Of a stretch of DNA of 64,000 bases, positions 5,443 through 57,670 are shown one piece after another. The notes under the pieces are model-generated. The model searched no databases and was not told the origin of the DNA. It saw only the letters and a program-made list of their open reading frames with translations. This DNA is from Bacillota bacterium (GTDB lineage: Bacteria > Bacillota > Sulfobacillia > JAJZYS01 > JAJYTV01): assembly GCA_021847575.1 (NCBI GenBank), contig JAJZQO010000002.1:22829-86828 (forward strand). Direction: 5' to 3'. Within the stretch, counting starts at the first letter, position 1. Each line of letters begins with the position of its first letter. The position numbers and the translations under genes are program-made.

Positions 5443-6222
5443 TCACCCTTTGGCGAGGTACCGGCGAAGGTTCCCGGGATCGAGCCTCATGCCCACGAAA
5501 AAGGAACCGAAGAGCGCATAGATGGCGCTCACCTCGTCGAACCGCATCTCGTAGATGATCTTCTTGAATTGCAGCGGATCGTCCGAAAACAGGTCGACGC
5601 CCCACTCCCAGTCGTCGAGACCCATCGAGCCCGTGATGATCTGCCGCACACGATCGGCGTAGCCGCGGCCGATCATGCCGTGGCTGCGCATGAGGTCCCT
5701 GCGCTCCATGGCGTCGAGCATGTACCAGTTGCGCTGCTCGCCGCGCAGCTTGCTCATCGGGTAGAAGCAGATGTAGCCAGTGCGGGGAAGTTCCGGCTCG
5801 AGACGCCCGCGCAAGGCTGCCTCGGCCTCGCGCGACGCCTCCTCGCTGCGCGGCGCCGACGTGTGCGTCGACAGTTCCACGACAGAGAGGAATGAATACG
5901 CGGGCGCGAGAAAGCGTCCAAGACCGCTGCGCGCCCAGGCGTTCTCGATCGCGGCGAGACCTTCGAGGCTCGGCCTGAAGTGCACGCCCATGAGATCCGC
6001 CTTGTGGCCGAGCAGCCAGTAGTGGCCGCTTGATCCGGAATGGTCGGCTTCCTTCGCCTGTTCCCCCGCCATCAGTGCGTCCGCCTCGGCCAGCAGAGCG
6101 TCGCGCTCGCTGTCGGCCAATGCCTGCCAGAGCGGCCAGTCGACGCGGTAGAGACTGTGCAGGCAGAACCAGCCGTCAAGTGTCTGCGGTGCGTTGGCCA
6201 CCTTGAACTTCACCCCGTTCAT
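5443..6222 (-). CDS. hemQ: Coproheme decarboxylase HemQ (chlorite-dismutase family)
   Basis: Within ORF 5443..6726 the internal start gives MNGVKFKVANAPQTLDGWFCLHSLYRVDW..., a typical HemQ N-terminus of 259 aa. The long upstream extension is an out-of-context frame. Confidence 0.75.
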   Translation of the reverse strand: MNGVKFKVANAPQTLDGWFCLHSLYRVDWPLWQALADSERDALLAEADALMAGEQAKEADHSGSSGHYWLLGHKADLMGVHFRPSLEGLAAIENAWARSGLGRFLAPAYSFLSVVELSTHTSAPRSEEASREAEAALRGRLEPELPRTGYICFYPMSKLRGEQRNWYMLDAMERRDLMRSHGMIGRGYADRVRQIITGSMGLDDWEWGVDLFSDDPLQFKKIIYEMRFDEVSAIYALFGSFFVGMRLDPGNLRRYLAKG

Positions 6223-6349
6223 TGTACATCTCGCTGCAAGCCGCACAGCATGCGAAAAGCCCCTGATCGCGGCCGATCGGGCACCCAGGCAGCTACAGCC
6301 GCCTCGCTGGGAGGCCCTTGCAGCGCAATGGAAAGGAAGGTTGCGCGAG

Positions 6350-6960
6350 GCCATCCTGGTGATCGGCGGTTCCGGTCTGATCGGCCCCCAACTGGTGCCG
6401 AACCTGCTGGCCGCAGGCGATGACGTCGTGTGCTCTCGCGCGGCAACCGCGCGGTGGATGTTCCGGGCGTAGAGCATGTGCTGGCCGACCGCGGCGCGGT
6501 TCGAAGCGCTGCCAGGGGCACATTCGATTGGGTGATCGACAACGTCGCCTGCATGCCCGCGGACGCAGACATGATCCTCGATGCGCTCGACGGCGGCTCG
6601 GACATTATGTGCAGAGAGGCACCGCGTTCGTCCACCCCAGCGTTCTGCATGCGGACGAAGGCCCTTCCGCGCCGCTGCGCGAGCAGACGCGCCGCCCGGG
6701 TCCTTGCCGAAAAACGACGATGACATGCCCCCGCACGCCCTACCGGCTGCCGCTGACCTTCCGTGTCGCCATCGATGTCTCGGCCGCCACGGACGGGCAG
6801 TTCACGTGGGCACCGATGGGCGAGTGGATGGCGAGGACGGGCGAATGGGCGAGCAGGTACTACGCAGGGCACGGCGAGGCCGTCTCTGCGGTTGTGAAGG
6901 GCCCTGACAGGCGGCTCGAGGATGTCCGCGAGCGTGCGGACATCCTCGGGCCGCACCCCG
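6350..6960 (+). pseudogene. Degraded NAD-dependent epimerase of the SDR39U1/YfcH type (DUF1731 C-terminal domain); multiple frameshifts and an internal deletion
   Basis: Three different + frames carry consecutive pieces: ILVIGGSGLIGPQLVPNLLAAGDDVV (Rossmann), RGTFDWVIDNVA / FVHPSVLHADEGPS, and PYRLPLTFRVAIDVSAATDGQFTWAPMGEWM (DUF1731-like). There is no intact start codon. Confidence 0.55.
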
Positions 6961-21750: not shown

Positions 21751-22707
21751 CTATGAGCCTTCGAGCGAAATGCGCATCCCGTCACGCGCCGCAACCACCC
21801 CGGCGCCACTCGCCTCGGCCACGAAAGCGGCGATCGCGTCGGCGTCCGGTGCCGCGCTCGCGTCGAAATGGCTGATCACGGCCTGCGCGACACCACTGCG
21901 CCGCAGCAGTTCGGCCGCTCCGACGGCGGTCAGGTGGCGATGGGCGTGCTGCCAGAAGAAACTGACATTCAGGATGGCGAGGTCCGCGCCCCGGATTGCG
22001 GCGACCAGCTCTTCGCGCACGTCGACGATTTCGCTCGGCAGGCTGAGCGGCACGCCCTGGCGGACGTGCCGCAGGACGCCGTCGCCGTCGCGGTAGCTGA
22101 GCACGAACGACGCATCGGAACTGTAGGCGATCGTCCGTCCCCCGCCCCGCAGCATGAACCCGTAGTTCTCGGGCCCGTGCTCCACCTTGAACGGCGTGGC
22201 CTGCACCTTGCCGACAGAGACCGGGTGACCCTCGCGCCACGTCACGACCTCAGGCCCGCCGCCGTACCATGGACTCGGGTCCTCGCCCCGGTGGAAGCGG
22301 CCCACAAGCCCGTCGCGCAGCGCTTCGGCCGGCATGGCGAGAATGCCCTTGCGCGTCGCCATGCCACGGCACATGCCCTCTACGAGGGCTCCCGCGCCAA
22401 GGTAGTGGTCGGTGTGGCCGTGCGAGATCAGAACGCCGTCAAGGCGTCTTGTGTCAAGATGCGCCCGCGCGGCGTGGAAGGCGGCACCCGGACCGGGATC
22501 GATGGCGATCGCCGAACCGGCCAGGTTGAGCCAGATCCCGCCGGTGCGCCTGCGCTGCCCGATGACCCCGGACGGGTTGCCGCCGGTGCCGAGGAAGTGC
22601 AGGAAGTCTCCCCGCTCGGGGGAGACTTCCTCGCTGCGCAACCAACGCGCGACGCGGCGCACGCGAGACTCGGTCCGCTCGAAGAGCCGTTCTGCGTCGC
22701 GCCTCAC
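21751..22707 (-). CDS. MBL-fold metallo-hydrolase
   Basis: HGHTDH motif. The proposed GTG start overlaps the secF stop (GTGA). ORF 21751..22779 is over-extended into secF. Confidence 0.6.
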   Translation of the reverse strand: MRRDAERLFERTESRVRRVARWLRSEEVSPERGDFLHFLGTGGNPSGVIGQRRRTGGIWLNLAGSAIAIDPGPGAAFHAARAHLDTRRLDGVLISHGHTDHYLGAGALVEGMCRGMATRKGILAMPAEALRDGLVGRFHRGEDPSPWYGGGPEVVTWREGHPVSVGKVQATPFKVEHGPENYGFMLRGGGRTIAYSSDASFVLSYRDGDGVLRHVRQGVPLSLPSEIVDVREELVAAIRGADLAILNVSFFWQHAHRHLTAVGAAELLRRSGVAQAVISHFDASAAPDADAIAAFVAEASGAGVVAARDGMRISLEGS

Positions 22708-23633
22708 CGCTCGGCCTTGGCGCTCCTGCGCGTGGCCGGTGCGGACGCCCGCTCGTTTGCGTCGACCCAGATGTACCAAAGCGGACTCGCGAACAGGATC
22801 GAGGAGTAGGCACCGAAGACAACGCCGATCAAGATGGCCGCGGAAAGATCCCTCGTCGTCGAGCCGCCGAAGAGCAGCAGCGCGAGCATCGCCAGGATTA
22901 CGACGACGGCGGTGATGATCGACCGCGCCAAGGTTTGGTTCAGCGAACGGTTCGTCAGGTCCTTGAGCGGCTCACCGCGCTTGCGCAGGCGCATGTTCTC
23001 ACGAATCCGGTCGAAGATGATGATTCGGTCGTTCAGCGAGTAGCCGATGATGATCAGCACGGCCGGCACGATGTTCTGACTTATCTGGAAGTGGATCAGG
23101 GCAACGAGGCCCAGGGTGACGATGGCGTCGTAGAAGATCGCCGCGATGCCGGTCAAGGCAAAGCGCAGGTCGAAGCGGATCATCATGTAGAGGACGATCG
23201 CAAGCGATGCGATCAGGACGGCGAGAATACCCGCCTTGACGAGTTCGTTCGAGAATGTGCCCGTGACCTTGTTGAGGCCACTGATCGAGTACTGGCCCAC
23301 CTGGGAGGTGAGGTCGCTCTGCAGGGCGTAGCGGGCATGCTCACCCAAGGAAGGGATCTCGATCAGGACGTCGCGCGAGGTCTGTCCGGTCTCCGTCCCG
23401 ACCAGCTGGATGACGGAGTTGCCGATGTGGTCGCGCTCGAGCACGGTGCGGATCTGGGCCGCGCTCACAGGCTTCTGGAACTGCAGGTTGTAGGTGATGC
23501 CACCCGTGAAGTCGATGCCGAGGTTCAGCCCGCGCAGGAAGAACCCGCCCAGGGCGATGATCAGCACGACCAGGGAGACGATGAACCACGTGCGGCGATG
23601 TCCGATGAAATCGAAGTGCGGCATTGGTCTCAC
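22704..23633 (-). CDS. secF: Protein translocase subunit SecF
   Basis: 309 aa with typical SecF TM topology and motifs (GIDFTGG, LNDRIIIFDRIREN). Confidence 0.9.
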   Translation of the reverse strand: MRPMPHFDFIGHRRTWFIVSLVVLIIALGGFFLRGLNLGIDFTGGITYNLQFQKPVSAAQIRTVLERDHIGNSVIQLVGTETGQTSRDVLIEIPSLGEHARYALQSDLTSQVGQYSISGLNKVTGTFSNELVKAGILAVLIASLAIVLYMMIRFDLRFALTGIAAIFYDAIVTLGLVALIHFQISQNIVPAVLIIIGYSLNDRIIIFDRIRENMRLRKRGEPLKDLTNRSLNQTLARSIITAVVVILAMLALLLFGGSTTRDLSAAILIGVVFGAYSSILFASPLWYIWVDANERASAPATRRSAKAER

Positions 23634-23643
23634 GTCCCCCCTA

Positions 23644-24846
23644 TTAGCCCAGGAACAGTTTCTGGTTGCGCACGAGCACGGTGTCCTCGGAGAGACGCAA
23701 CAGGTAGCGCGTAACGCCGACGGCAGTGACGAAGCTCGCCAGGACGCCGATGATCAGCGTCACGGCAAAGCCGCGCACCTCGCCGGTGCCGAAGTAGTAC
23801 AGCACGGCGGCGGCGATCACGGTCGACACGTTCGAGTCCATGATGGCGCGCAGGGCATTCTTGAAGCCGTGGTCGATCGCGGCGCCCATGGTGCGCCCGG
23901 CGCGCAGTTCATCCCTGATGCGCGCGAAGATGATGACGTTCGCGTCGACGGCGATGGCCGCCGACAGGATCACGCCCGCGATGCCCGGCAGCGTCAGCAC
24001 TGCGCCGAAGACGATGAGCGCTCCCACGACGAGGATGAGATAGATCCCGAGAGCGATGTCCGCGATGAAGCCCGCGTAGCGGTAGATGCCGAGCATCACC
24101 AGGATGATCAGCGCCATGGCGATCAGGATCGCGATCGCGCTTGCGTGGATCGAGTCCTGACCCAGAAGCGGCGACACGGTCTGCGCCTCGATGATCCGCA
24201 TCGGAATCGGCAGGGCGCCGGAGTTCAGGAGGTCTGCCGTCTGCTGGGCCTGCTTCAGGCTCGAGAAACCACCTGAGATCATGCCCTGGCCACCGCTGAT
24301 CACGGAGTCCACCCTCGGGTTCTCGAGCTCGTTCTTGTCGAGCCAGATCGAGATGGTTTGGCCGAGGTACTTCTTCGTGGCCGCTGCGAACAGCCTGGCG
24401 CCTTCCGAATTGAACTGCAGGTTGACGATCGGGCCGTAGGTCTGGTCGAGGGCCGCCGAGGCGGAAGTGAGGTCCTTGCCTGTCAGGATGATCGATCCGT
24501 TCGGCGCCTTGAAGATCAGCTGCGCCGTCTGTCCAATCATCTTGATGGCCGCCTGCTGGTTGTGTACCCCCGCAAGGTCGACGACGATCTGGTTCGAGCC
24601 CTGCAGCTGGATCGACGGCTCGGAGATGCCGAGCTTGTTGGCGCGGTAGGCGATGATCGTCTCCGCTTTCTGCATGTCTGCGTGCGTCGCCGGGCGTGTC
24701 GCCTGCAGAACGACGTGCACGCCACCCTTCAGGTCGAGACCTTCCTTCACGTAATTCGTGACCGGACTGACCGCGGTGAAGTAGACGTACACTGCGGCCA
24801 CCACGACCACGATCAGAATGAGGCCGAGAATTCCGCGGCCGCGCAC
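23644..24846 (-). CDS. secD: Protein translocase subunit SecD
   Basis: 400 aa. SecD periplasmic domain plus C-terminal TM bundle. Upstream of secF. Confidence 0.9.
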   Translation of the reverse strand: MRGRGILGLILIVVVVAAVYVYFTAVSPVTNYVKEGLDLKGGVHVVLQATRPATHADMQKAETIIAYRANKLGISEPSIQLQGSNQIVVDLAGVHNQQAAIKMIGQTAQLIFKAPNGSIILTGKDLTSASAALDQTYGPIVNLQFNSEGARLFAAATKKYLGQTISIWLDKNELENPRVDSVISGGQGMISGGFSSLKQAQQTADLLNSGALPIPMRIIEAQTVSPLLGQDSIHASAIAILIAMALIILVMLGIYRYAGFIADIALGIYLILVVGALIVFGAVLTLPGIAGVILSAAIAVDANVIIFARIRDELRAGRTMGAAIDHGFKNALRAIMDSNVSTVIAAAVLYYFGTGEVRGFAVTLIIGVLASFVTAVGVTRYLLRLSEDTVLVRNQKLFLG

Positions 24847-24885
24847 GGCTTGTCCTCCTCATGAGCAAATGAAAGTCCACACGGC

Positions 24886-24913
24886 ATTATACGGGAAGCG
24901 CGTCACACGGTCC
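24886..24913 (-). promoter_or_regulatory. Putative sigma-A promoter for secDF (-35 TGGACC, 17-nt spacer, -10 TATAAT)
   Basis: On the minus strand, TATAAT lies 33 nt upstream of the secD ATG. The palindrome CCACCAGACCTTGGTGG overlaps the -35. Confidence 0.45.
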
Positions 24914-24972
24914 ACCAGACCTTGGTGGCAGCCGCGGGGGCACCTGGTTTTCCCGCTCTCCACTTCCAGCGG

Positions 24973-25593
24973 CTACAGCAGCCTGTGTTCGTTCGCCGTG
25001 AGGCTGAAACGGCAGTGCAGTACCTCGGCCGCCCGCCTGCACATCACCATGCGGCTCAAGAAAATCTCGAAGTAGTTCATCGGCGAGATGGAATCGTCGA
25101 TCTGCAGTGCGAGCGTGATCACCGCCGCGTCGCGGTCGATCACGAGCTGGCTGCGCCGGACGGCGGCGTTGACGCGGTCGTGCTCGTCGTACTGCGCCGG
25201 ATCCTCAGTCTGAACGCGGCTGATGTGCACGTCGGACTTGTCCGCGAGGATCAGGGCAGCCGAGACCGGCGAGACGGCCTCGCCGTACTCCTCCTCGTGG
25301 TTGCCGATCGCGCCGAGCACGATGGCGATCTCCTCGGGCGGCATCTCGAGCTCCCGCAGGATGGGATAGGACAGCATCGCGGACGACTGGCCGTGGTGGT
25401 TGCGCCCAGCGATGTTCCCGATGTCGTGCAGGTAACCGGCAATAGCGGCCAACTCCGCATCACGCTGCGGGTAGCCGAGTTCGATCAGCACGCGGCGCGC
25501 GATTTTGGCCACGAGTCCGACATGGCGCGTGCCGTGTTCCGTGTAGCCCATGGCCCGCAGCGCGCCGTTCGCGGCAAGGACGAACTGGTGCAC
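24973..25593 (-). CDS. HD-domain phosphohydrolase
   Basis: 206 aa. H...HD metal-binding motif (GYLHDIGN) typical of HD/HDIG hydrolases. Confidence 0.6.
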   Translation of the reverse strand: MHQFVLAANGALRAMGYTEHGTRHVGLVAKIARRVLIELGYPQRDAELAAIAGYLHDIGNIAGRNHHGQSSAMLSYPILRELEMPPEEIAIVLGAIGNHEEEYGEAVSPVSAALILADKSDVHISRVQTEDPAQYDEHDRVNAAVRRSQLVIDRDAAVITLALQIDDSISPMNYFEIFLSRMVMCRRAAEVLHCRFSLTANEHRLL

Positions 25594-25615
25594 GTCCTGG
25601 CGCCCGGCAACGTTC

Positions 25616-25984
25616 TCAAGCGTTACGGCGATCGGGTTCTACCCCCTTCTTGCGCAGGGCCGCCTCCACGCGGTCCGCCACTGCCACTGGATCCAGTCCA
25701 TCGGTATGGAGGTGGATGACGGCCCGCGCCATGGCGGCCCCCAGGCGCTCCCGCTCCACCCGGATCCTCTCCTGCCCGTACCCCACCATGCGCCGCATGC
25801 GGACTGTGTCGAGCTCGGCGTCGAGCACCACAACGTAATGGTAACCGAGTTCGAGCGCAAGGTCGCGCACGCTCGAATGTTCTTGCGGCAAGCAGTGTGC
25901 GTCGTAGCCGCGCAGGCGCAGGATGCGCGCAAGGGTCGACTTGCCCGCGGCGGAAACGCCGACGACGGCCACCGGTGCCGGCAT
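25616..25984 (-). CDS. Small P-loop NTPase/kinase-like protein
   Basis: 122 aa. Walker A VVGVSAAGKSTLA at the N-terminus. Confidence 0.5.
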   Translation of the reverse strand: MPAPVAVVGVSAAGKSTLARILRLRGYDAHCLPQEHSSVRDLALELGYHYVVVLDAELDTVRMRRMVGYGQERIRVERERLGAAMARAVIHLHTDGLDPVAVADRVEAALRKKGVEPDRRNA

Positions 25985-25985
25985 G

Positions 25986-26693
25986 CTATGCCGGCAGGTG
26001 CAGGCTGAACGCCCGCGCCGTCGCGTCCGTGCCGCTGCAGATGCCGAACACCCCCACCGTCATGTCATCGCGGGCACGACCTTTCGCTTCGCCGTGCGAG
26101 AGGTCCAAGATCGCCTGCGCGAGTTGTTCGGCGCCTTGTTCGGCCGCCGAGCGGACCAGCCCGACGATGCCGTCCAGCACGCGGCTGCCGCCGGACCAGC
26201 GATCCGGTGCCAGGACACCATCCGAGAGCGCTACGATGATCGTCCCCTCGCCAAGGGGGAACTCATGCACGAACGGCTTCGTGGACGGATCCACGCCGAT
26301 CGGCCCGTAGGGACACATGAGCCGCTCGACAACGCCCTGCCGTCGCACCAGAACCATGTCCGGCCCGTTCTGCGACACAAGCAGCGCCCTCGCCTCGAGG
26401 TCCGCCGACACGATCGTCAGCGTCGCGGAGACCTTGCCGCCGCGCTGCGCGTAAAGGAGGTCGTGGACGGCGCGGGCCGTCGCCCCGTCGCGCGCGCCCT
26501 CGGAGATGAGGTTGGCGCAGCGGTTGGCGACGAGCAGGGCGGTCCGCCTCGCGGCCTCGCCGTTTCCCTGCCCATCGGCCATGATCAGCGACACGCCGCC
26601 GCGCGCCCGCTCAACCACCTGTGCCTGATCGCCGCTAAAGTCAAGGCCGTGCCGCGGCAGTTTGCGCACGGCGACGCAAATCTCAAGCGCCAC
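25986..26693 (-). CDS. PP2C/SpoIIE-type serine/threonine phosphatase (stand-alone catalytic domain)
   Basis: 235 aa. DFSGD...MADGQGNG...SDG acidic metal-binding pattern of the SpoIIE/PP2C fold. Overlaps the selB stop by 11 nt. Confidence 0.65.
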   Translation of the reverse strand: MALEICVAVRKLPRHGLDFSGDQAQVVERARGGVSLIMADGQGNGEAARRTALLVANRCANLISEGARDGATARAVHDLLYAQRGGKVSATLTIVSADLEARALLVSQNGPDMVLVRRQGVVERLMCPYGPIGVDPSTKPFVHEFPLGEGTIIVALSDGVLAPDRWSGGSRVLDGIVGLVRSAAEQGAEQLAQAILDLSHGEAKGRARDDMTVGVFGICSGTDATARAFSLHLPA

Positions 26694-28596
26694 CGCCGCT
26701 CCCCTCCCCTGGCGCGATCAGCCGTCGCACATCGCCGAAGCGCCTTGTCAGGCGTATCTGATCGAAATGTTCGAGCAGCGGCACCGCGTATTTGCGCGTC
26801 GTGCCCATCGCCTCGCGCAACTCGGCCGTCGTCGCCTCCCGGCCGCCTGCCAGCAGCCGCCGCACTTTTTCCGCCGCGTCGGTGAGCGCGGCCTTTGCGA
26901 AGTAGAGGTCTTTGGCCCTGGCGAGTCTGCCGCTGTCGACGAGGTATGCGAGAAGATCCTGCAGGCGCTCCGGCGACATGCCCGAGGCCCCGGGCCAGTC
27001 GGCGGGGACCGCGGGCTGCAGCCCGCCCGCGGCGACGAATGCCTCAAGGTCTCGCAGTTGTCGCTCGAGTTCGGGCGGGAACTGCTGGCTTGCCCCCAGC
27101 GGGCGCACGCGCTCGCCGGACAGCGCGACCCTGCCTTCCGCCGCGAGCTCCGCCAGGAGCTGCGATGCCTCGCGGACGGCCAGTTCCGGCACCACCTCGC
27201 GCCGCCACTGCTGGCGCTCGATGCCCCGCCAGAGGGGATCCAGATCCGCCTGGGCCAGCATCTGCTCGAGTTCCACCTGCACCCGGCGTTCAAACTCCTC
27301 CCGGTCGAGATAGAGCTCGCCCAGTCTGCGCAACCGTCCCTCCTCCGCGAGGCTTTCCGCCACCTGCCGGGCCTCGCTGGAAGCCAAACCCAACTCCTGC
27401 GCAAGCGTGCGCGTATCTGCCGCGAAACGCCGGCGCACCGCACCCAGCACCATGTCGGCGGGAGATGCCTCGCGCCTGCGCTCGAGTTCCGCGATATCCT
27501 CCGGGTGGCCGCGTCGCTGACGGCCCGCGAGATCGAGGACCAAGCCGCCACCGATCGTACGGGGCGGCGAGAAGCTGCGTACGACCACCCTGTCCCGCAC
27601 CACCGCAGGGAACGGCGTCTCGCCGCGGAAGCGCACGAAATCCCCTGTGCCGGGTGGGATCTCCTGACGCCTCAAGGGCACGACCCGGCCGATCACCTCC
27701 GTCGTGCCGATGTGCAAGCGCACGCGCACACGCGTGGGCAGCGGCGGGGCTTCGGCCAACAGGGTCAGATGCAGCGTGACCTGCGATGTCTCCTGCACGC
27801 TGCCCGGCGTGGCCAGCACCTGTCCGCGCGCAACCTGATCGCGATCGACCTGAGAGAGGTTGACCGCCGTGCGCTCGCCCGCGCGGCAGCGCTCGCGCGC
27901 CTCGCCGTGGGACTGCAGTCCGCGCACGCGCGCGCTCAGGTGCCCGGGCACCAGCTCCAGGCGATCGTCGACCGCGATCTCGCCAGACGCCAGTGTGCCG
28001 GTGACGACAGTGCCGAAACCGGGCATAGAGAACACGCGATCGATCGGCAGGCGCGCGGGTCCGAGCGCGCTGCGCGGACGCAGCCGAGCGACGGCCGCCT
28101 CCAGAAGTCCCTGCAGTTCCGCAATGCCTCCGCCTGTCACGGAGGATACGCCGACGACAGGCGCACCCTCGAGAAACGTGCCGTGGAGCTCCTGGCGCAG
28201 ATCGGCCTCGATCAACCGCCGCCACTCGTCGTCGACCAAGTCGATCTTGGTCAGGCAGACGATGCCTTCGGACACGCCGAGCAGCGACAGGATCTCGAGG
28301 TGCTCGCGCGTCTGCGGCATCACGCCCTCGTCAGCCGCCACCACGAGCAGAACGATGTCCATGCCTTGGGCGCCCGCGACCATGTGATGGATGAAGCGCT
28401 CGTGCCCAGGCACGTCCACGATCGCCGCCCTCTGGCCCGATGGCAGGGTGAAGGGCGCGAAGCCGAGCTCGATCGAGATGCCACGTGCCCGCTCTTCCGG
28501 CAGGCGATCGGTTTCGTGCCCCGTCAGCGCGCGGATAAGTGCCGTCTTGCCATGATCGACATGACCCGCCGTACCAATGATCAAGCGTAGATCCAT
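26683..28596 (-). CDS. selB: Selenocysteine-specific translation elongation factor SelB
   Basis: EF-Tu-like GTPase ([19 protein letters not shown]) followed by a long C-terminal tandem winged-helix region (...[20 protein letters not shown]). GGAGG RBS before the internal ATG at 28596. Confidence 0.8.
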
Positions 28597-28667
28597 GTGT
28601 GCCTCCGCTCTGCCCGGGCAGGCCCGCGCGGGCCGCTCAGAAAGCCCTTTTGCGTGTCCGACGGCGT

Positions 28668-28696
28668 TTGACAGCCGACACATCGGACTCTATACT
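28668..28696 (+). promoter_or_regulatory. Consensus sigma-70/sigma-A promoter for tRNA-Pro (TTGACA-N17-TATACT)
   Basis: -35 TTGACA at 28668..28673 and -10 TATACT at 28691..28696. The tRNA 5' end is at 28709. Confidence 0.7.
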
Positions 28697-28708
28697 TTCG
28701 GTGTGCTT

Positions 28709-28786
28709 CGGGGAGTGGCGCAGTTTGGCTAGCGCGCTGCGTTCGGGACGCAGAGGTCGCAGGTTCAAATCCTGTCTCCCCGACCA
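28709..28786 (+). tRNA. tRNA-Pro (anticodon CGG), CCA-encoded
   Basis: Manual cloverleaf: acceptor CGGGGAG/CTCCCCG, D-stem GCGC/GCGC, anticodon stem CTGCG/CGCAG with loop TTCGGGA (U33, anticodon CGG, G37), 5-nt variable loop, T-arm GCAGG-TTCAAAT-CCTGT, discriminator A, then CCA. Confidence 0.8.
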
Positions 28787-28794
28787 TTATTCCA

Positions 28795-28826
28795 GGGACC
28801 GTCCGCCATGCGGTCGGTCCCTTTTG
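28795..28826. terminator. Hairpin GGGACCG...CGGTCCC followed by TTTT, an intrinsic terminator after the tRNA (possibly bidirectional with the nudix gene)
   Basis: 7-bp GC-rich stem with a T-run at 28822..28825. Located between the tRNA 3' end and the convergent nudix gene. Confidence 0.55.
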
Positions 28827-28855
28827 TCGAAGGTGGGAGGCCAATTGGTGGTAGG

Positions 28856-29275
28856 TCACTTCCCATGCAGCTCCAGTGCCTTGCGCAACAGCGTACGGTA
28901 CCCGGGGTAGCCCCGCCGCTGGACCTGCTCCTGCGCGTCCTCGATCCTGAACCAGCGCGCCTCGGCGATCTCGCTCTGCAACGCCTGCAGCTCACCCTCC
29001 TCGTACGTCATCAGGAAGTACGTGACCTGCTTGTCGTTGCCGCCCGGGAGGACGTAGCCCACTTGGCCCAGCCGCACGCCGGGACGCGCTTGCACGCCGG
29101 TCTCTTCCAGAACCTCCCGTACCGCCGCCTCCCTGGCTGTTTCGCCAGCCTCGATGTGCCCCTTTGGAAACGTCCAGCGACCGTAGCGGTCTCGTATCAT
29201 CAGGACCTCTTCGCCACGCATTACGATGCCGCCCGCCGACTGCTCGGTCATTCCGACACCCCAACTTCCTGTCAC
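28856..29275 (-). CDS. NUDIX hydrolase
   Basis: Nudix box GHIEAGETAREAAVREVLEETG. 139 aa; the alternative start 29251 is also possible. Confidence 0.8.
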   Translation of the reverse strand: MTGSWGVGMTEQSAGGIVMRGEEVLMIRDRYGRWTFPKGHIEAGETAREAAVREVLEETGVQARPGVRLGQVGYVLPGGNDKQVTYFLMTYEEGELQALQSEIAEARWFRIEDAQEQVQRRGYPGYRTLLRKALELHGK

Positions 29276-29293
29276 TGCGGAAGGAGCGTTGCA

Positions 29294-29721
29294 TGTTCAT
29301 TATAGTCGTAGGTTGCGGCCGGCTGGGGTCGTCGCTCGCCCGTAGCATGGCGGGCGCGGGCCACCAGGTGACGGTCGTCGACTGGAACCCGCAGAGGTTC
29401 GAGCGCATTGCGGATCTGTCCGAAGTGGCCCAGGTGCTCGGCACCGGCATCGACATCGACGTGCTGCGTGGCGCTGGCGCTGAAGCATGCGACGCCCTCG
29501 TCGCCGTCACGGACCACGACAACTCCAACATCATGATTGCCCAGACCGCTGAGCAGATGTTCCATGTGCGGCACGTCGTAGCGCGGGTCAACGATCCACG
29601 CACTGGGCCCTTGCTCGAGACCTTCGGCATTCAGTCCGTCTGCCCGACACAGCTTGCCGCGGACGCTCTCTTCGCGACCCTGCAGGCCGACTGGCACGGC
29701 GAGACCCCAAAGTCCCACTGA
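29294..29721 (+). CDS. TrkA-N (RCK NAD-binding) domain protein, short form
   Basis: MFIIVVGCGRLGSSLA... Rossmann GxGxxG. 142 aa. RBS GGAAGGAG before the ATG. Confidence 0.7.
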
Positions 29722-46445: not shown

Positions 46446-46454
46446 TTGTGGATC

Positions 46455-46640
46455 GTCTGTTAGGTGAGGCTACCCGCGAGAGATAGGCTCTTGCCCGGAA
46501 ACATCGAGAGATGCCCACGGGTGAAACAGTCCCGGTCGATACAAGGCCGGAACCAGAGAGCTGGAGCGAAGCTCCTATGCCGCGCGGTGCTGAAGCTCAA
46601 CGAGAAGACGCCAGTTTTTCCTGGGCGTGTTCTCACGCCC
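46455..46640 (+). ncRNA. M-box (ykoK-type) Mg2+-sensing riboswitch with an intrinsic terminator expression platform
   Basis: Contains the hallmark M-box segments GUUAGGUGAGGCU and CCUAUGCC...GUGCUGAAGCUCAACGA. A terminator CCTGGGCGTG-TTCT-CACGCCCAGG plus T6 lies at 46610..46639. Sits upstream of an NRAMP transporter. Confidence 0.75.
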
Positions 46641-46837: not shown

Positions 46838-48190
46838 ATGGCTTCGGCCAAGATGGACAATGAGCTTGAGTTGCCGCGGGACGTGCGTCAGCGCGCCGAG
46901 GACCGGCTTGCGCTCCAGTACGCGCGGCAGGATCGCGGCCTGTGGGCGAGCCTGCGGATGCTCGGGCTGCTGATCGGGCCGGGGATCCTCGTCATGATTG
47001 CAGACAACGATGCCGGCGGCGTCATCACGTACGCGCAAACCGGCGCCAGTTACGGCCTCGGCTTCTTCATCCCGTTTCTCGTGGTGATGATCCCGGTCGC
47101 CTTCGTCGTCCAGGAGATGACCGTGCGCCTCGGCGCCGTGACGCGCCGTGGCCACGCAGAACTGATCTTCATGCGCTACGGGCGCTTCTGGGGTACCTTC
47201 TCCGCCATCGATCTCGTCATCGCCAACACCCTCACGCTCGTGACGGAGTTCATCGGCATCGCAGCGGGTCTCGCCATCTTCCGCGTACCGATCGGCCTGT
47301 CGGTCGTGCTGGGACTGGCCGCCGTCTGGGCTGTCACGCTGATCGGGCGCTATCGGCTTTGGGAGCGCATTTCCCTCTGGGTCGCGCTGCTCAATGTCGT
47401 GTTCGTGCCACTTGCCCTGGCCGCCCATCCCGACTTCGCCGCCGTGGCAAGCAGCTTCCTCACGTGGCACATCCGCGGCGGGGCCTCAGGGCCATTCCTC
47501 ATGCTGCTCCTGGCGAACCTCGGCACCACGATCGCGCCCTGGATGCTGTTCTTCCAGCAGTCCGCCGTCGTCGACAAGGGCCTCACCCCACGCGATGTGC
47601 GCTTCGGCCGCGTGGACACTTTGATCGGCAGCGTCGTGATGGGCGTGGTGGCCATCGCGCTCGTCATCCTCGCCGCCACCGTGCTGCACGCCGTCCCAGG
47701 AGCAAGCGGGCTCGAGATCCGCTCCATCCTGAGTTCCGTCGGCAGGCATGTCGGCAGCTGGGCGGAGTCGCTGTTCGCCCTGGGTCTGATTGAGTCCGGC
47801 CTGATTGCAGCCATGGCCATCACCGCGAGCACCTCGTGGGCCGCCGGTGAGGCCCTCGGCCTGAAGGTCCGCAGCCTGAACGCCGGACTCAGGCAGGCGC
47901 TTCCCTTCTACCTGCCGGGCCTGATCGCCGTCACCCTGGCCGCCTGCGTCGTCCTTATCCCCGGTGCGCCGCTCGGTTACCTCAACGTCCTCGTGCAAGT
48001 GCTCGCCACCGTGTTCATGCCCGCGGCGCTGCTGTTCCTCCTGCTCCTCGTCAACGACCGCGAAGTGATGGGCCGACACGTCAACAGCCGCCTGCAGAAC
48101 GTGACGGCGATCGGCATCGTCGCACTCCTCGTCCTCATGAACGGCCTCTACGGCCTCTCGGTCGTGCTGCCTTCCCTCTTCCCGCACTGA
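46838..48190 (+). CDS. NRAMP-family divalent cation transporter (MntH-like; possibly the Mg2+-transporting NrmT subtype)
   Basis: 450 aa, 11-12 TM. NRAMP motif IGPGILVMIADNDAGGVITYAQTGASYG. GGAAGGAGG RBS. Confidence 0.8.
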   Translation: MASAKMDNELELPRDVRQRAEDRLALQYARQDRGLWASLRMLGLLIGPGILVMIADNDAGGVITYAQTGASYGLGFFIPFLVVMIPVAFVVQEMTVRLGAVTRRGHAELIFMRYGRFWGTFSAIDLVIANTLTLVTEFIGIAAGLAIFRVPIGLSVVLGLAAVWAVTLIGRYRLWERISLWVALLNVVFVPLALAAHPDFAAVASSFLTWHIRGGASGPFLMLLLANLGTTIAPWMLFFQQSAVVDKGLTPRDVRFGRVDTLIGSVVMGVVAIALVILAATVLHAVPGASGLEIRSILSSVGRHVGSWAESLFALGLIESGLIAAMAITASTSWAAGEALGLKVRSLNAGLRQALPFYLPGLIAVTLAACVVLIPGAPLGYLNVLVQVLATVFMPAALLFLLLLVNDREVMGRHVNSRLQNVTAIGIVALLVLMNGLYGLSVVLPSLFPH

Positions 48191-51716: not shown

Positions 51717-52613
51717 TCACTCCCGCCTGTCGCCCACCTGGGACTGGCTTTCGAATTGCTCGAGGAAGTGGATCACGTCCCGTGTGATCGGGCTCGGTGT
51801 CGACGACCCCGACGTGACGCCGACCGTCGCCTTGCCTTCGAGCCAGCGCGGATCGATGTCGTCCACGCCGTCGACGAGATAGGCCGGGCGCGCTGCCTGC
51901 TCCTTGACCACCTGCACCAGGCGGTTCGAGTTGTTGGAACGCGTGTCGCCCACCACGATGACGAGATCGCAAGCCTCCGCCTGGCGCACGGCCGCCTCCT
52001 GGCGCAGCTGCGTCGCTAGGCAGATCTCGTTGTACACCTCGACCTCGGGGTAGAGTTGCCTGAGCTGCGCGATCGTGGCGTCCGTATCCCAGCGCGAAAG
52101 TGTCGTCTGGGTCACGACGGCGAGTCTCTTCCCGGCCAGGTCCAATTCACGCACATCTTCCGCCGTCTCGATGAGGTGCACACGGTCTGGCGCCTCCCCC
52201 ATCGCGCCCTCGGGCTCCGGGTGGCCGCGACGGCCGATATAGAGGACGGTGTATCCCTCGTCGGCGAGCGTGCGGATGAGGTCATGGGTCTTCGTGACGT
52301 CGGGACAGGTGGCGTCCACGACGTCCAGGCCCTTCTCCGCGGCGCGCCGCCGCACTTCCTGCGAGACGCCATGCGCGGTGAAGATCACCGTGCCTTCGCT
52401 GACACGTTCCAGCAGTTCGAGTCGGTTCTCGCCGTCCAGCGATACGACCCCGTAGCGGTCGAGCTCCTCGACCGCATGGCGGTTATGCACGATCAGACCG
52501 AGGACGAAGATCGGCTTGCGCGTCTTCGGGTCCTCCGCCACCTGCCGCACCAGCTTCTGGGCGTCGACGACGCCGTAACAATAGCCGCGCGGCGTAATCC
52601 TCACGACCTGCAC
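51717..52613 (-). CDS. ispH: 4-hydroxy-3-methylbut-2-enyl diphosphate reductase IspH/LytB
   Basis: VQVVRITPRGYCYGVVDA... with a GTG start after GGGGGGAG. Conserved Cys (CYG, ATCPDV, NSNR). ORF 51717..53072 is over-extended. Confidence 0.8.
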   Translation of the reverse strand: MQVVRITPRGYCYGVVDAQKLVRQVAEDPKTRKPIFVLGLIVHNRHAVEELDRYGVVSLDGENRLELLERVSEGTVIFTAHGVSQEVRRRAAEKGLDVVDATCPDVTKTHDLIRTLADEGYTVLYIGRRGHPEPEGAMGEAPDRVHLIETAEDVRELDLAGKRLAVVTQTTLSRWDTDATIAQLRQLYPEVEVYNEICLATQLRQEAAVRQAEACDLVIVVGDTRSNNSNRLVQVVKEQAARPAYLVDGVDDIDPRWLEGKATVGVTSGSSTPSPITRDVIHFLEQFESQSQVGDRRE

Positions 52614-52635
52614 CGGCGAACTCCCCCCAAAGCCG

Positions 52636-53613
52636 TCAGCGTGCGAGAGCGCGCCTAGCCCACTCATAGGCGTAATAGGTGACGATGAAGCGGGCACCTG
52701 CCCGCTTAAAGGCCACAAGCGACTCGCCCACCACTTGGTCGCGGTCGAGCCAGCCGCGCTCGGCGGCCGCTTCCAGCATGGCATATTCGCCTGACACTTG
52801 GTAGGCCCCGACCGGCACCTGGGCCTCACTCGCCACCTTCGCCAGAATGTCGAGATAGGGCATCCCGGGCTTGACGAGAAGCATGTCGGCACCTTCGGCC
52901 ACATCGAGGCGCGCCTCGCGCAGCGCGTCGCGTCCGTTGCGGAAGTCCATCTGGTAGCCCGAACGATCGCCGTGCTGCGGCGCCGACCCGGCCGCCTCGC
53001 GGAAGGGGCCGTAGAATCCCGAGCGGTACTTGACGGCGTACGACAGGATGGCTGTCTGGCTGAAGCCCGCACTGTCGAGACCTGCGCGCAGTGCCGCGAC
53101 CCGCCCGTCCATCATGTCGGAAGGGGCGATCACGTCCGCCCCGGCCTCCGCTTGGCTGACCGCCGCGGCCGCGAGCAGAGGCAGGGTCGCGTCGTTGTCC
53201 ACGCTGCCGTCCTCGCGCAGTACCCCGCAGTGGCCGTGGTTTGTATATTCGCACAGGCAGGTGTCCGCCATCACCAGGAGGTCTGGTACCGCCTGCTTGA
53301 TGCGGCGCGTCGCGTCCTGGACCGGCGCGTCGAGGCGAGCGGCCCAGCTGCCTGCGGAGTCCTTCTCCGGCGGAATGCCGAAAAGCAGCACTGCCGGCAC
53401 ACCCGCACGGTAGATGGCTTCGGCCTCCTTGGCGGCCTCGTCGGCAGAGAGATGCTCCTGTCCCGGCAGGGATGAGATCGGACGGCGGACACCCTGCCCC
53501 GGCACGACGAACAGCGGCTGGACGAGGTCCTTGGCCCTGATGTCCCATTCCGCCACGAGGTCGCGCATCGCTCGGCTCGCCCGCAGTCGCCTGGGACGTT
53601 CGATCAGCTTCAT
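52636..53613 (-). CDS. hemB: Porphobilinogen synthase (delta-aminolevulinic acid dehydratase)
   Basis: MKLIERPRRLRASRAMRDLV... with a GAAGGAG RBS. Metal-binding Cys cluster CLCEYTNHGHCG. Confidence 0.85.
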   Translation of the reverse strand: MKLIERPRRLRASRAMRDLVAEWDIRAKDLVQPLFVVPGQGVRRPISSLPGQEHLSADEAAKEAEAIYRAGVPAVLLFGIPPEKDSAGSWAARLDAPVQDATRRIKQAVPDLLVMADTCLCEYTNHGHCGVLREDGSVDNDATLPLLAAAAVSQAEAGADVIAPSDMMDGRVAALRAGLDSAGFSQTAILSYAVKYRSGFYGPFREAAGSAPQHGDRSGYQMDFRNGRDALREARLDVAEGADMLLVKPGMPYLDILAKVASEAQVPVGAYQVSGEYAMLEAAAERGWLDRDQVVGESLVAFKRAGARFIVTYYAYEWARRALAR

Positions 53614-54701
53614 GTGGATGTCACTCCTTCGGACGAGCCCTTGGGGCCTGGGAGTACCTGCCGGAGCGCGGCAAGAATCGCTGCAAGTCCGGGCGATGCG
53701 GCCTGTGCGGCCGGCGCCAGCCCCAACTCGAGGCATGCGGCTCGGGTCGTGGGGCCGATCGCGACGGTCGGCACGCCGTTCAGAAAACCCCGCGGCAGGG
53801 CCGACACGGCCCCTTGCACTGCCGACGGGCTGTAGAACACCGCCGCGTCGGGTGGCCCAGTGTTCACGAGCGCCGCGGCTTGGACTTTGTCCGCCTGACG
53901 CACGGTCCGGTAGAGCGGCACGGCATCGCTCCGCAGTCCCAGTTCCCCAAGCGCCGCGAGCAAGGCCTGGTCGACGGGATCCGGACCGAGCAAGAGCGCC
54001 CGGTCCCCTGGGCGCACGCGGCCGGCCAGCTGCGCGGCGAGACCTGATGCCGTACCTTCGCGGGCAATCTCGGCGAGAAGTCCCCTGGCCCGCAGGGAAA
54101 GCGCCGTCGCGGGACCCACGGCCAGGAGGCGCGCATCGCCCAGACGCCGCACATCCATGGCTTTCGCGTCCAGCGCGGCGAAAAAATTCTGTACCGCGTT
54201 CTGGCTCGTGAAGAGCATGTAGCGGTAGGTTCCGAGACGCTCGAGCGCGCCCTCGAGTGGCGATGCGTCAACTGCCGGCTCGATGCTGAGGGCAGCCAGC
54301 AGGACGGGTTCGGCGCCGCGCAAGCGCAATGCGCCGAGCAGCGCGCCGGCCTGCGCCGCCGCACGGGTCACCAGGACACGGCGGCCGGCGTAGGGCGGAG
54401 GCTGAACCATGGGGCCGCAGGGCCCAAGCGTCGGCAGACTCACCACCGCGTGACCCTGCCCGAGAAAGGACTCGGCCTCGGCGGCCAGCGCCTCCGAAGG
54501 GCCATAGAGGCGCGCCACGACGCCCTCGCGGCGCTGCATGACCAGCGCGGGCGGAACAACCTGCGCCTGCGGGCGCAGGTAGAGTTCGAGCGACGCGGGC
54601 AAGGCCGCGGCGCTTGACACGATCGGTGCGGCATCGAGCAGTTCGCCGAGGAGAGGCGTCGCTGACGGGTCCCAATAGGCGTAGAAAACCTCAAGGGCCA
54701 T
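53610..54701 (-). CDS. hemD: Uroporphyrinogen-III synthase HemD with an ~100-aa N-terminal extension of unknown function
   Basis: The C-terminal ~255 aa (RRVLVTRAAAQAG...) has the HemD two-lobe pattern. ATGA overlap with hemB; the start overlaps the hemC stop by 11 nt. The alternative internal start MVQPPPYAGRRVLVTR would give a standalone HemD. Confidence 0.6.
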   Translation of the reverse strand: MALEVFYAYWDPSATPLLGELLDAAPIVSSAAALPASLELYLRPQAQVVPPALVMQRREGVVARLYGPSEALAAEAESFLGQGHAVVSLPTLGPCGPMVQPPPYAGRRVLVTRAAAQAGALLGALRLRGAEPVLLAALSIEPAVDASPLEGALERLGTYRYMLFTSQNAVQNFFAALDAKAMDVRRLGDARLLAVGPATALSLRARGLLAEIAREGTASGLAAQLAGRVRPGDRALLLGPDPVDQALLAALGELGLRSDAVPLYRTVRQADKVQAAALVNTGPPDAAVFYSPSAVQGAVSALPRGFLNGVPTVAIGPTTRAACLELGLAPAAQAASPGLAAILAALRQVLPGPKGSSEGVTST

Positions 54702-55611
54702 CCGCGGCCGCCCCCCCGAGTATCCGCCCAGCGCCGCCCAGCAGGAGCTGTTTCGCCGCCTCGCGCCCGAGCTCTTCCGCCTGCTCGCCTTCAAGACTGA
54801 CGCGCATCGCAACGCCGCCGTCGGGCGCGAACACCCCCGCGGTCAGGACGAGACGGGGGCCCTGGCGTCGCGCCAAGGCTCCCACCGGCAGGCTGCAGCC
54901 GCTGCCGAGTTCCCTCAGTACGGTGCGCTCGCAGAGCGCGACCTCCTCCGTCAGCGCATGGCTGACGCCTCTCAGCCATGGCAGGATGTCCGTCCGACCT
55001 TCGGCCGCCTCGACGGCAATGATGCCCTGCGCCGGTGCCCCCAGCACCTCGTCCGGCTCCAGGTACTGGGCGATCGCGGCAGCGCGACCGTCCCGCAAGA
55101 GGCCTGCGGCAGCCATGACGAGCGCATCGTACTCGCCATCGGCGAGCTTGCGCAGTCGCGTCCCGACATTGCCACGTACGTCGGCGACCTGGAGGTCCGG
55201 CCGGAGGTGCAGGAGCTGTGCCTGTCGTCTGGGACTCGACGTGCCGACGCGCGCGCCGTAAGGCAGGCTGGCAAGTGTCAGGCCCTGCGGACCCACAAGC
55301 GCATCGCGCGGGTCCTCGCGCGGCAAGAGCGCCGCAATGACGAGGCCATGCGCCAGTTCGGTCGGCAGGTCCTTGAGGCTGTGCACAGCGACATCGGCCT
55401 CACCGCGCCTGAGCATCGCCTCGATCTCCTGCGTGAACACGCCCTTGCCGCCGATGCGGCTAAGACCGACGTCCTGCCTGACGTCGCCTTCGGTCTCGAC
55501 CTCGACGTAATGGATATCGGCCTGCGGCTCGGCTGCCGCGAGCGCAGCGCCAAACAGCTCGGCCTGCCTTTTGGCAAGAGGGCTGCGCCGCGAGGCGATG
55601 CGGACCTCCAT
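54691..55611 (-). CDS. hemC: Hydroxymethylbilane synthase (porphobilinogen deaminase)
   Basis: MEVRIASRRSPLAKRQAE... with the dipyrromethane cofactor Cys region. 306 aa. Confidence 0.85.
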   Translation of the reverse strand: MEVRIASRRSPLAKRQAELFGAALAAAEPQADIHYVEVETEGDVRQDVGLSRIGGKGVFTQEIEAMLRRGEADVAVHSLKDLPTELAHGLVIAALLPREDPRDALVGPQGLTLASLPYGARVGTSSPRRQAQLLHLRPDLQVADVRGNVGTRLRKLADGEYDALVMAAAGLLRDGRAAAIAQYLEPDEVLGAPAQGIIAVEAAEGRTDILPWLRGVSHALTEEVALCERTVLRELGSGCSLPVGALARRQGPRLVLTAGVFAPDGGVAMRVSLEGEQAEELGREAAKQLLLGGAGRILGGAAADGP

Positions 55612-55679
55612 TCCATCACCCCCACCTGGCCAATGCACCGGGCCGAGCCCGGCTCGGCGCCAGCGAGAAATCCCCGTGC

Positions 55680-56960: not shown

Positions 56961-57670
56961 TCCGCTGCAACCCCCTGGTGGATGGCGACAGAGCCGAGGG
57001 TTAGGGGCCAAGTTTCGACCTTCTCGAATCCCGCCCCGCGATAGAGGTCAGCCAGAGCCGCGCGGCCCGGAAACCTGCGATGGGACTCGGGCAGCCAGGC
57101 ATAGGCCGCGCCACCGCGGCCCGCGAGCCGTCCGAGGACCGGCACGATGCCGTAGAAAAACAGCTTGAAGCCGAAGAAGTAAAGGGGATTGGTCGGGCGC
57201 GAGACCTCGAGCGACAAGGCGCGTCCCCCAGGACGCAGCACGCGGCGCATCTCCTTCAGCGCGGTCGGCAGATCGGGGAAGTTGCGCAGGCCGAAACCGC
57301 ATGTCACGAGGTCGAAGCTCGCGTCGGGGAAGGGCAGTTGCAGAGCGTTGCCCTCGACGAGTTCTATGCGCGAGGCAAGACCGCGCTCGGCGACCTTGCG
57401 CTCCGCGACCTCGAGCATGTCGTGGCTGAGGTCCAGGCCCGTGACGTGCACCCCTGGCGCAAGTTGTGCAATCATGATCGCAAGGTCGCCTGTGCCAGTG
57501 GCGAGGTCAAGACACCGCTCGCCATCCACGGGCGAGACCTGTTCGAGGAACCTGCGCTGCCACCTGCCCCATTGGCCAAGCGTGATCACGCGGTTCATCG
57601 GGTCGTAGACTTGCGCGATGTCGCCGAAGATGCGTCGGATCTTGGCGTCATGCGGTTCGTGGCGGGCCAA
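56957..57670 (-). CDS. menG: Demethylmenaquinone/ubiquinone methyltransferase (UbiE/MenG)
   Basis: IFGDIAQVYDPMNRVITLGQ...LDLATGTGDLA (SAM motif I). 237 aa with a TTG start after GGGAGG. The stop overlaps the hemA start (ATGA). Confidence 0.75.
   Translation of the reverse strand: MARHEPHDAKIRRIFGDIAQVYDPMNRVITLGQWGRWQRRFLEQVSPVDGERCLDLATGTGDLAIMIAQLAPGVHVTGLDLSHDMLEVAERKVAERGLASRIELVEGNALQLPFPDASFDLVTCGFGLRNFPDLPTALKEMRRVLRPGGRALSLEVSRPTNPLYFFGFKLFFYGIVPVLGRLAGRGGAAYAWLPESHRRFPGRAALADLYRGAGFEKVETWPLTLGSVAIHQGVAAE

Follow-up and report, generated by a model that had tools for sequence, protein, structure and literature searches.

The DNA examined here is a 64,000-nucleotide (nt) stretch of the genome of a Bacillota bacterium (assembly GCA_021847575.1, contig JAJZQO010000002.1), referred to below as the window, and all positions are counted from its first letter. 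On its minus strand lies selB, followed by genes for a stand-alone SpoIIE/PP2C-type phosphatase, a small Walker-A (P-loop) protein and an HD-domain hydrolase (Table 1). An original prediction, made from the sequence before any database search, had named all four genes correctly, as is now seen from matches to TIGR00475, PF07228, a Walker A motif and PF01966. It had proposed that the last three form a module tied to selenoprotein synthesis or else a kinase/phosphatase/HD cassette. That description ended at the HD gene; secD and secF, which come next on the same strand, proved to be the key to the context. We consider it likely that the locus consists of two unrelated and probably co-transcribed units, a genuine selB and a widespread cassette linked to secDF, in which a phosphorylation switch would operate.

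The packing of the four genes on one strand is as tight as had been claimed, with spacings of -11, +1 and +22 nt from selB through to the HD gene. The PP2C gene overlaps selB by 11 nt at the selB stop codon, and a gap of 22 nt separates the P-loop gene from the HD gene. The P-loop gene had been placed 1 nt before the end of the PP2C gene, which is incorrect: the PP2C stop codon TAG occupies 25988-25986 and the P-loop ATG 25984-25982, leaving 1 nt between them and no overlap. A scan of the locus found no terminator-like site or hairpin between selB and the HD gene, and this, together with the tight same-strand packing, makes co-transcription of the four genes plausible. The HD gene and secD, also on the same strand, are separated by a spacer of 126 nt that holds the only promoter-like match on the minus strand there, possibly an internal promoter for secDF. 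The open reading frames (ORFs) of selB, PP2C, P-loop and HD share a high-GC coding signature, with a GC content at third codon positions (GC3) of 0.80-0.89. Comparison with two relatives, which also provided the gene-specific values given below, yielded ratios of nonsynonymous to synonymous substitution rates (dN/dS) of 0.05-0.18 across the four genes, all of which are under purifying selection by this measure.

Table 1. Features at the selB-secDF locus, with positions in the window
Feature	Position	Strand	Description
selB	26683-28596	minus	637 amino acids (aa); SelB
PP2C gene	25986-26693	minus	GTG start, 235 aa; stand-alone SpoIIE-type Ser/Thr phosphatase domain
Mini P-loop gene	25616-25984	minus	122 aa; Walker A
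HD gene	24973-25593	minus	GTG 25593, 206 aa; HD-domain phosphohydrolase
HD-gene upstream in-frame stretch	25594-25641	minus	Codes for conserved N-terminus NPIAVTLENVAGRQD; closed by TAG 25641-25639
Sigma-70-like promoter match	24886-24914	minus	TGGACC, 17 nt spacer, TATAAT; consensus match only
secD	23644-24846	minus	400 aa; Pfam SecD_1st, SecDF_P1_head, SecD_SecF_C on identical gene in locus L001
secF	22704-23633	minus	Longest ORF 309 aa; 306 aa in public record
tRNA-Pro(CGG)	28709-28786	plus	Divergent from selB; ARAGORN/Rfam

The genomic context of these genes was followed in two censuses, one centred on the HD gene (80 loci from species-representative genomes) and one on the PP2C gene (80 metagenome loci, seeded with a PP2C alignment). 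Fractions in the PP2C-centred census refer to 64 loci with enough sequence, to 37 PP2C/P-loop pairs with at least 2.5 kb downstream, or to 42 pairs with at least 2.2 kb upstream. A P-loop gene lies no more than 300 nt downstream of the PP2C gene in 51/64 of these loci, and on the downstream side of the pair secD is found within 2 kb in 33/37. An HD gene stands between the pair and secD in 15 of these 33 secD-linked cases, and no HD gene is present in the other 18. Upstream of the pair, yajC was detected in 31/42, selB in 5/42 and neither in 6/42. The HD-centred census contains 13 loci with PP2C and P-loop genes directly upstream of the HD gene, always as a pair (13/13). In the same census, selB occurs within 10 kb upstream of the HD gene in 10/80 loci, all of them from one clade consisting of nine close relatives and Symbiobacterium thermophilum. 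Five of the close relatives have the full layout, four have selB abutting the HD gene without the pair, and the tenth locus is from an S. thermophilum metagenome-assembled genome (MAG). This clade belongs to the high-GC Bacillota; the nearest named relatives are MAGs labelled Thermaerobacter, and Symbiobacterium is the most distant member of the clade.

Within the clade, the order selB-PP2C-P-loop-HD-secDF is repeated in close relatives with 84-89% PP2C identity and in one further relative at 66%, as part of a longer syntenic block that reads TrkA-NUDIX-tRNA-Pro-selB-(pair)-HD-secDF-MBL-CDF-recJ-apt-relA (MBL, metallo-beta-lactamase fold; CDF, cation diffusion facilitator). The four loci without the pair (L019-L022, with 74-80% HD identity; e.g. 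L022:7902-10618) lack both PP2C and P-loop genes, and about 210-250 nt separate selB from the HD gene that follows it, so the pair was lost or gained within the clade. In two other loci (L009 and L151), about 2 kb lie between selB and the trio, and in L009 this interval contains unrelated genes including one for malic enzyme. As the whole block is syntenic in close relatives, the adjacency of selB to the cassette persists no more strongly than the synteny of recJ or relA.

Outside the clade, the trio is present without selB at 42-44% PP2C identity. A Thermincolia MAG (L006) has the order ruvB-queH-...-queA-tgt-yajC-[PP2C-P-loop-HD]-secD-secF-CDF-recJ-apt-relA, and another Bacillota locus (L004) and Desulfitispora alkaliphila (L096) are similar, again with the trio and without selB. 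In Selenomonas (L094) and in a MAG labelled Chloroflexi (L095), PP2C and P-loop genes are located directly upstream of secDF with neither an HD gene between nor selB nearby, and alignment identified the small proteins at these two loci as P-loop homologues. The HD gene alone occupies the place between yajC and secD in Moorella glycerini and Endomicrobiellum, and tgt-yajC-HD-secDF is the typical order in several phyla. As a cassette immediately upstream of secDF, these genes turned up in several Bacillota classes as well as in MAGs labelled Chloroflexi and Ignavibacteriales. What stays constant beside the PP2C/P-loop pair is thus secDF and not selB, and the same is true of the HD gene in most sampled lineages.

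These loci also place the window within the known tgt-yajC-secD-secF cluster. Its order HD-secD-secF-...-CDF-recJ-apt-relA matches that of Thermincolia, Moorella and Desulfitispora, with the difference that selB occupies the place of tgt-yajC, neither of which was found in the window. The classical yajC-secDF operon of E. coli is not known to have PP2C, P-loop or HD genes between yajC and secD. A literature search returned no paper joining secDF with PP2C/SpoIIE, or an HD gene with yajC and secDF. As selB replaces tgt-yajC upstream in one clade only, its adjacency to the cassette is best read as lineage-specific synteny and would not reflect a selenocysteine function.

Downstream of secF, the window continues with a gene for an MBL-fold protein, a small ORF, a CDF transporter gene, recJ, apt, relA and dtd. 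The MBL-fold gene (21751-22779, minus strand) follows secF directly, overlapping it when the longest ORFs are taken, and holds this position in close relatives; its Pfam list contains a faint match to Anti-Pycsar_Apyc1, a cyclic-nucleotide phosphodiesterase-like family.

Several lines of sequence evidence indicate that selB is a genuine, working gene under purifying selection. The protein scores 327 bits against TIGR00475, whose equivalog cutoff is 242, and carries the Pfam domains GTP_EFTU, GTP_EFTU_D2, Beta-barrel_SelB and SelB-wing_3. A GTPase domain and C-terminal winged-helix repeats had been predicted. The GTPase domain stands, as does a 258-aa C-terminal extension beyond domain III; of the wing models, only SelB-wing_3 matches (residues 582-626, E = 1e-16), with no match to the wing_2 model, whereas the Symbiobacterium orthologue matches both. 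The closest solved relatives are the SelB proteins of Aquifex (4zu9, E = 4.7e-65) and E. coli (5lzb, E about 1e-64). The ORF is intact and of the same length as in relatives. Its dN/dS of 0.16-0.18, near that of secD (0.12-0.14), argues for a functional gene with partners elsewhere, and selA, selD, tRNA-Sec and the selenoprotein genes presumably lie outside the window.

The absence of these partners from the neighbourhood, as originally predicted, extends to the full 64 kb. Neither tRNA-Sec nor any selenocysteine insertion sequence (SECIS) family was found in the window with ARAGORN, with Rfam at gathering thresholds or with a permissive Rfam scan of 24000-29500; tRNA-Pro(CGG) and an M-box were the only matches of the two programs. 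A tRNA-Sec nested inside selB, an arrangement reportedly present in Alphaproteobacteria, was not found here either, with tRNA-Pro being the only ARAGORN/Rfam match in that region. Pfam searches of 28 other sizeable ORFs of the window revealed no SelA or SelD, and instead ordinary metabolism, regulators and transporters. A scan of the 64 kb for in-frame TGA codons joining two coding-like segments yielded no UGA-interrupted gene, again in line with the original prediction. The candidates it raised were three pairs of adjacent, separate genes (at 7846, 9786 and 31944) and an antisense shadow ORF over recJ. The divergent tRNA-Pro(CGG) gene keeps its position in most close relatives examined, and a strong promoter-like match (TTGACA, 17 nt spacer, TATACT) lies beside it at 28668-28696.

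With canonical sel clusters, namely E. coli selAB and the selA-selB-selC operons with fdhA (PMC1794560), the window shares the SelB GTPase, domains II and III and the C-terminal winged-helix extension. It differs in that searches of the 64 kb turned up neither selA, selC or selD nor a selenoprotein gene, and in that selB is flanked instead by the divergent tRNA-Pro gene and the secDF-linked cassette, a layout also present in Symbiobacterium thermophilum. That species is reported to decode selenocysteine (Sec) and to have 12 selenoproteins (PMC1794560). The S. thermophilum MAG has the order selB-PP2C-P-loop-HD-secDF, with a SelB 47% identical to that of the window; upstream of its selB come genes for a TetR regulator and an ABC transporter, and neither selA nor selD. 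Since a Sec-decoding organism has this same layout, a stand-alone selB is normal in this lineage and not an anomaly.

The phosphatase matches the SpoIIE family PF07228 with E = 2e-20 (74 bits against a cutoff of 25), and its closest solved relative is a Ser/Thr phosphatase of Sphaerobacter thermophilus (PDB 3pu9, E = 5e-40 over residues 4-218), for which a literature search found no paper. Residues D22, D40-G41, D158-G159 and D209-D210 are invariant among 10 diverse members, and the acidic metal-binding motifs are intact; dN/dS is 0.10-0.12. To our knowledge, SpoIIE-type PP2Cs are described only as protein phosphatases. The phosphatase domain (PF07228), with its conserved metal-binding aspartates, is common to the SpoIIE-SpoIIAA-SpoIIAB and RsbU-RsbV-RsbW partner-switching modules. 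Unlike these, the window cassette has no STAS substrate, GHKL anti-sigma kinase or sigma factor, and its phosphatase is a bare catalytic domain of 235 aa whose constant partner is the P-loop protein. Genes for a STAS-domain substrate or a GHKL serine kinase/anti-sigma factor are absent from the window and from the related loci with listed gene calls.

For the P-loop and HD proteins, profile searches had been suggested as a check; the HD protein reached PF01966, and the P-loop protein stayed below all cutoffs. In Pfam and NCBIfam it attains no curated family threshold, with only sub-threshold matches to AAA_18, AAA_33, dNK and RapZ-like_N, and a profile search against the PDB gave weak results. 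Its family nevertheless has a clear signature, a Walker A motif followed about 20 residues later by a Q-E-H-S motif that is 99-100% conserved, with R64, R80 and T94 also conserved; we refer to it as the QEHS family. It is a small family of 393 cluster representatives among 1.84 billion, and their median length is 133 aa. Every one of the top structural matches to the predicted model is a small-molecule kinase (shikimate, dephospho-CoA, GMP or CMP kinase), so that the protein combines Walker A with what the model suggests is a fold like that of shikimate and nucleoside monophosphate (NMP) kinases. Compared with known P-loop kinases (HprK/P, PDRP/PSRP and the shikimate/NMP kinases), the mini P-loop protein is set apart by its length of about 115-135 aa and its invariant QEHS motif, and by reaching no curated family cutoff.

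Fusions provide a further indication of what the P-loop protein works with. In two MAGs, P-loop and HD are fused in one ORF (L028:9599-10618, 339 aa; L033:9599-10591, 330 aa), and both loci have a seven-transmembrane (7TM) HD-GYP gene directly upstream of the PP2C gene. A 488-aa protein in the representative library (P0228) joins a QEHS P-loop to GAF and HD-GYP (HD_5) domains. These architectures link the P-loop domain in function to hydrolases of the HD type. Two other candidates (P0261 and P0307) were rejected as HD fusions, as each consists of the P-loop domain and a C-terminal domain of about 200 aa that is not HD.

The HD protein matches PF01966 with E = 5e-10, its H/HD/H/D metal-binding residues are invariant, and its structural model is confident, with a predicted local distance difference test (pLDDT) score of 89.5. 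The family is very conserved, with more than 8000 matches at about 55-63% identity across phyla. It falls into no characterised subfamily: assignment to YqeK, YpgQ, PgpH, HD-GYP, RNase Y or SpoT was not possible, PDB searches found no solved sequence relative, and the structural neighbours are generic (the PPX/GppA C-terminal domain, the GlyRS-beta HD domain, YedJ and HD-GYP). In Armatimonadota the gene lies elsewhere, as lpxK-HD with ruvB nearby, and this context offers no functional hint. The start of the window HD gene deserves a note. Four close relatives begin it at a TTG (GTTGAA) that lies within the 3'-terminal part of the P-loop gene. At this site the window reads GTAGAA, which is a synonymous Val codon in the P-loop frame and a TAG stop in the HD frame, and the 15 codons after the TAG still encode the conserved HD N-terminus NPIAVTLENVAGRQD. 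Translation would begin either at GTG 25593, giving a protein 16 aa shorter than its relatives, or at a non-canonical ATC at 25632.

Taken together with the census, these features suggest a cassette made up of a stand-alone SpoIIE-type PP2C and a QEHS P-loop protein of about 120 aa, with or without a conserved HD phosphohydrolase, directly upstream of secD-secF. It is preceded by tgt-yajC in most bacteria and by selB in the Symbiobacterium/Thermaerobacter-like clade (NUDIX - tRNA-Pro - selB in close relatives). The P-loop protein, with its shikimate/NMP-kinase-like fold, may act as a phosphotransferase, and the PP2C, with its full set of catalytic aspartates, would reverse the phosphorylation. 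The two would then form a switch acting on or with the HD hydrolase and expressed along with the SecDF export machinery. Our best guess is therefore a kinase/phosphatase couple working with an HD hydrolase, and the kinase/phosphatase/HD cassette that had been offered as a fallback holds.

A number of observations weigh against this proposal. The Walker-B Asp is not conserved in the P-loop family, the AlphaFold2 (AF2) model of the window protein has moderate confidence (pLDDT 76), and the protein falls far short of real NMP and shikimate kinases in size, which keeps its kinase role putative. Half of the secD-linked pairs (18/33) have no adjacent HD gene, so HD cannot be the sole target. No Ser/Thr column separates HD proteins encoded with the pair from those encoded without it; a search for a pair-specific phospho-acceptor gave only two differential columns, neither of them Ser or Thr. 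The operon is deduced from spacing alone, and a promoter-like site separates HD from secD. Finally, selB remains adjacent to the cassette down to about 47% SelB identity (L089 and L117), which leaves formal room for a functional link specific to that clade.

The main rival to the phosphorylation switch is a nucleotide-metabolism cassette, which we regard as a possible though clearly less probable account. The P-loop protein would be a kinase for small molecules, namely nucleotides, and the HD protein would serve the same pathway as a phosphohydrolase of nucleotides or second messengers, with the PP2C as regulator; a cyclic or polyphosphorylated nucleotide might, for example, be turned over and its product re-phosphorylated. 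Such a cassette would fit the small-molecule kinases that head the structural matches of the P-loop model, the fusion of the P-loop domain to HD and to GAF-HD-GYP, the latter an architecture of cyclic-di-GMP phosphodiesterases, and the 7TM HD-GYP gene upstream of the PP2C gene in both fusion loci. However, a protein of about 115 aa is without the substrate-binding and lid elaborations of NMP and shikimate kinases, SpoIIE-type PP2Cs are known to act only on proteins, implying a phosphoprotein, and the pair is often found with no adjacent HD gene. An RNA end-healing pair, modelled on the bifunctional HD-Pnk enzyme of Runella slithyformis, would make the HD protein a 2',3'-phosphoesterase and the P-loop protein a 5'-OH polynucleotide kinase. 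We consider this highly improbable even though a P-loop and HD fusion architecture exists, given that none of the loci showed an RNA ligase partner, that the P-loop domain falls well short of Pnk kinase domains in size and matched none of the Pnk families of Pfam or NCBIfam, and that the PP2C partner would be left unexplained. It is also improbable that there is no functional unit at all and that PP2C, P-loop and HD are housekeeping riders in a ruvAB-queA-tgt-yajC-secDF-recJ-apt-relA superoperon region. In favour of this, the region is long and conserved and brings together genes with no common function, HD and the pair each occur in the other's absence, and the Armatimonadota HD gene sits elsewhere beside lpxK. 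Against mere co-residence, PP2C and P-loop genes are nearly always adjacent (51/64 and 13/13 in the two censuses), P-loop/HD gene fusions arose and persist, and the pair keeps the same place relative to secD in lineages as distant as Negativicutes and the Chloroflexi MAG.

A selenocysteine-linked module, in which the pair would regulate SelB or selenoprotein synthesis by phosphorylation, or the HD and P-loop proteins would serve selenium or nucleotide metabolism for Sec, is very unlikely and has been largely refuted by the distribution of the genes. The idea draws on the 11-nt overlap of selB and PP2C genes in the window, on adjacency in relatives down to 47-50% SelB identity (L008, L089 and L117) and on SelB being a paralogue of EF-Tu, which in other Bacillota is under the control of Ser/Thr kinases. 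On the other side, 37/42 pairs have no selB near them, nor do the Bacillota, Thermincolia, Selenomonas, Chloroflexi and Desulfitispora loci described above (L004, L006, L094, L095 and L096). The four selB-HD loci (L019-L022) have no pair, about 2 kb splits selB from the trio in L009 and L151, and recJ, apt and relA show the same degree of synteny in close relatives. The co-occurrence of the trio with selB in other genomes, whose absence the original prediction had named as grounds for refutation, is mostly lacking. The tie to selenoprotein synthesis is not supported by an upstream neighbour that is selB in 5/42 pairs and yajC in 31/42, with selB confined to one clade; the predicted gene order is conserved in that clade, and elsewhere the trio occurs without selB while secDF stays constant. 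It is scarcely credible that the lineage has lost selenocysteine and that its selB is a relic in decay. The 64 kb yielded no other Sec component, but the 637-aa ORF is intact and as long as in relatives, dN/dS is 0.16-0.18, SelB scores above the equivalog cutoff, and selB is conserved across the clade, including in the Sec-using S. thermophilum. A reading of the cassette as anti-phage defence was discarded, PADLOC having given only generic P-loop/HD motif matches (E = 1e-3 to 2e-5 over about 25-40 residues).

For selenium biology the outcome is negative: a lone selB beside signalling-type genes is no evidence for a new Sec regulatory module, and the lineage that includes the selenoprotein-rich S. 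thermophilum keeps selB away from other sel genes. What emerged as a by-product is a secDF-linked cassette of a bare PP2C and a QEHS P-loop protein, with or without HD, for which we found no earlier description, and a P-loop family that has no curated model. Should the pair prove to be a kinase and its phosphatase, this would mean an additional Ser/Thr phosphorylation system, of non-Hanks type, with a link to protein export or nucleotide signalling. A bolder version, which we advance by analogy and regard as doubtful, is that the QEHS P-loop proteins might be a new class of non-Hanks P-loop protein kinases, in the manner of HprK/P and PDRP, that together with the PP2C controls the HD protein and, either by way of HD or directly, SecDF-dependent export; in the Symbiobacterium/Thermaerobacter clade, being transcribed with selB might also bring SelB within its reach, in parallel to the phospho-regulation of EF-Tu in other organisms.

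Some features elsewhere in the window are recorded here for completeness. The M-box (Mg2+) riboswitch lies at 46449-46615 on the plus strand, with 118 bits, and sits upstream of a gene for an Nramp-family transporter (46838-48190, plus strand) and not of an MgtE or MgtA gene. A heme-biosynthesis cluster at 51717-57011 on the minus strand encodes GluTR, porphobilinogen deaminase, HemD and ALAD, followed by a LytB/IspH gene; several of its longest ORFs overlap with long N-terminal extensions, and the true starts are probably further downstream. An ORF of the chlorite-dismutase family at 5443-6726 likewise carries an extension of about 200 aa.

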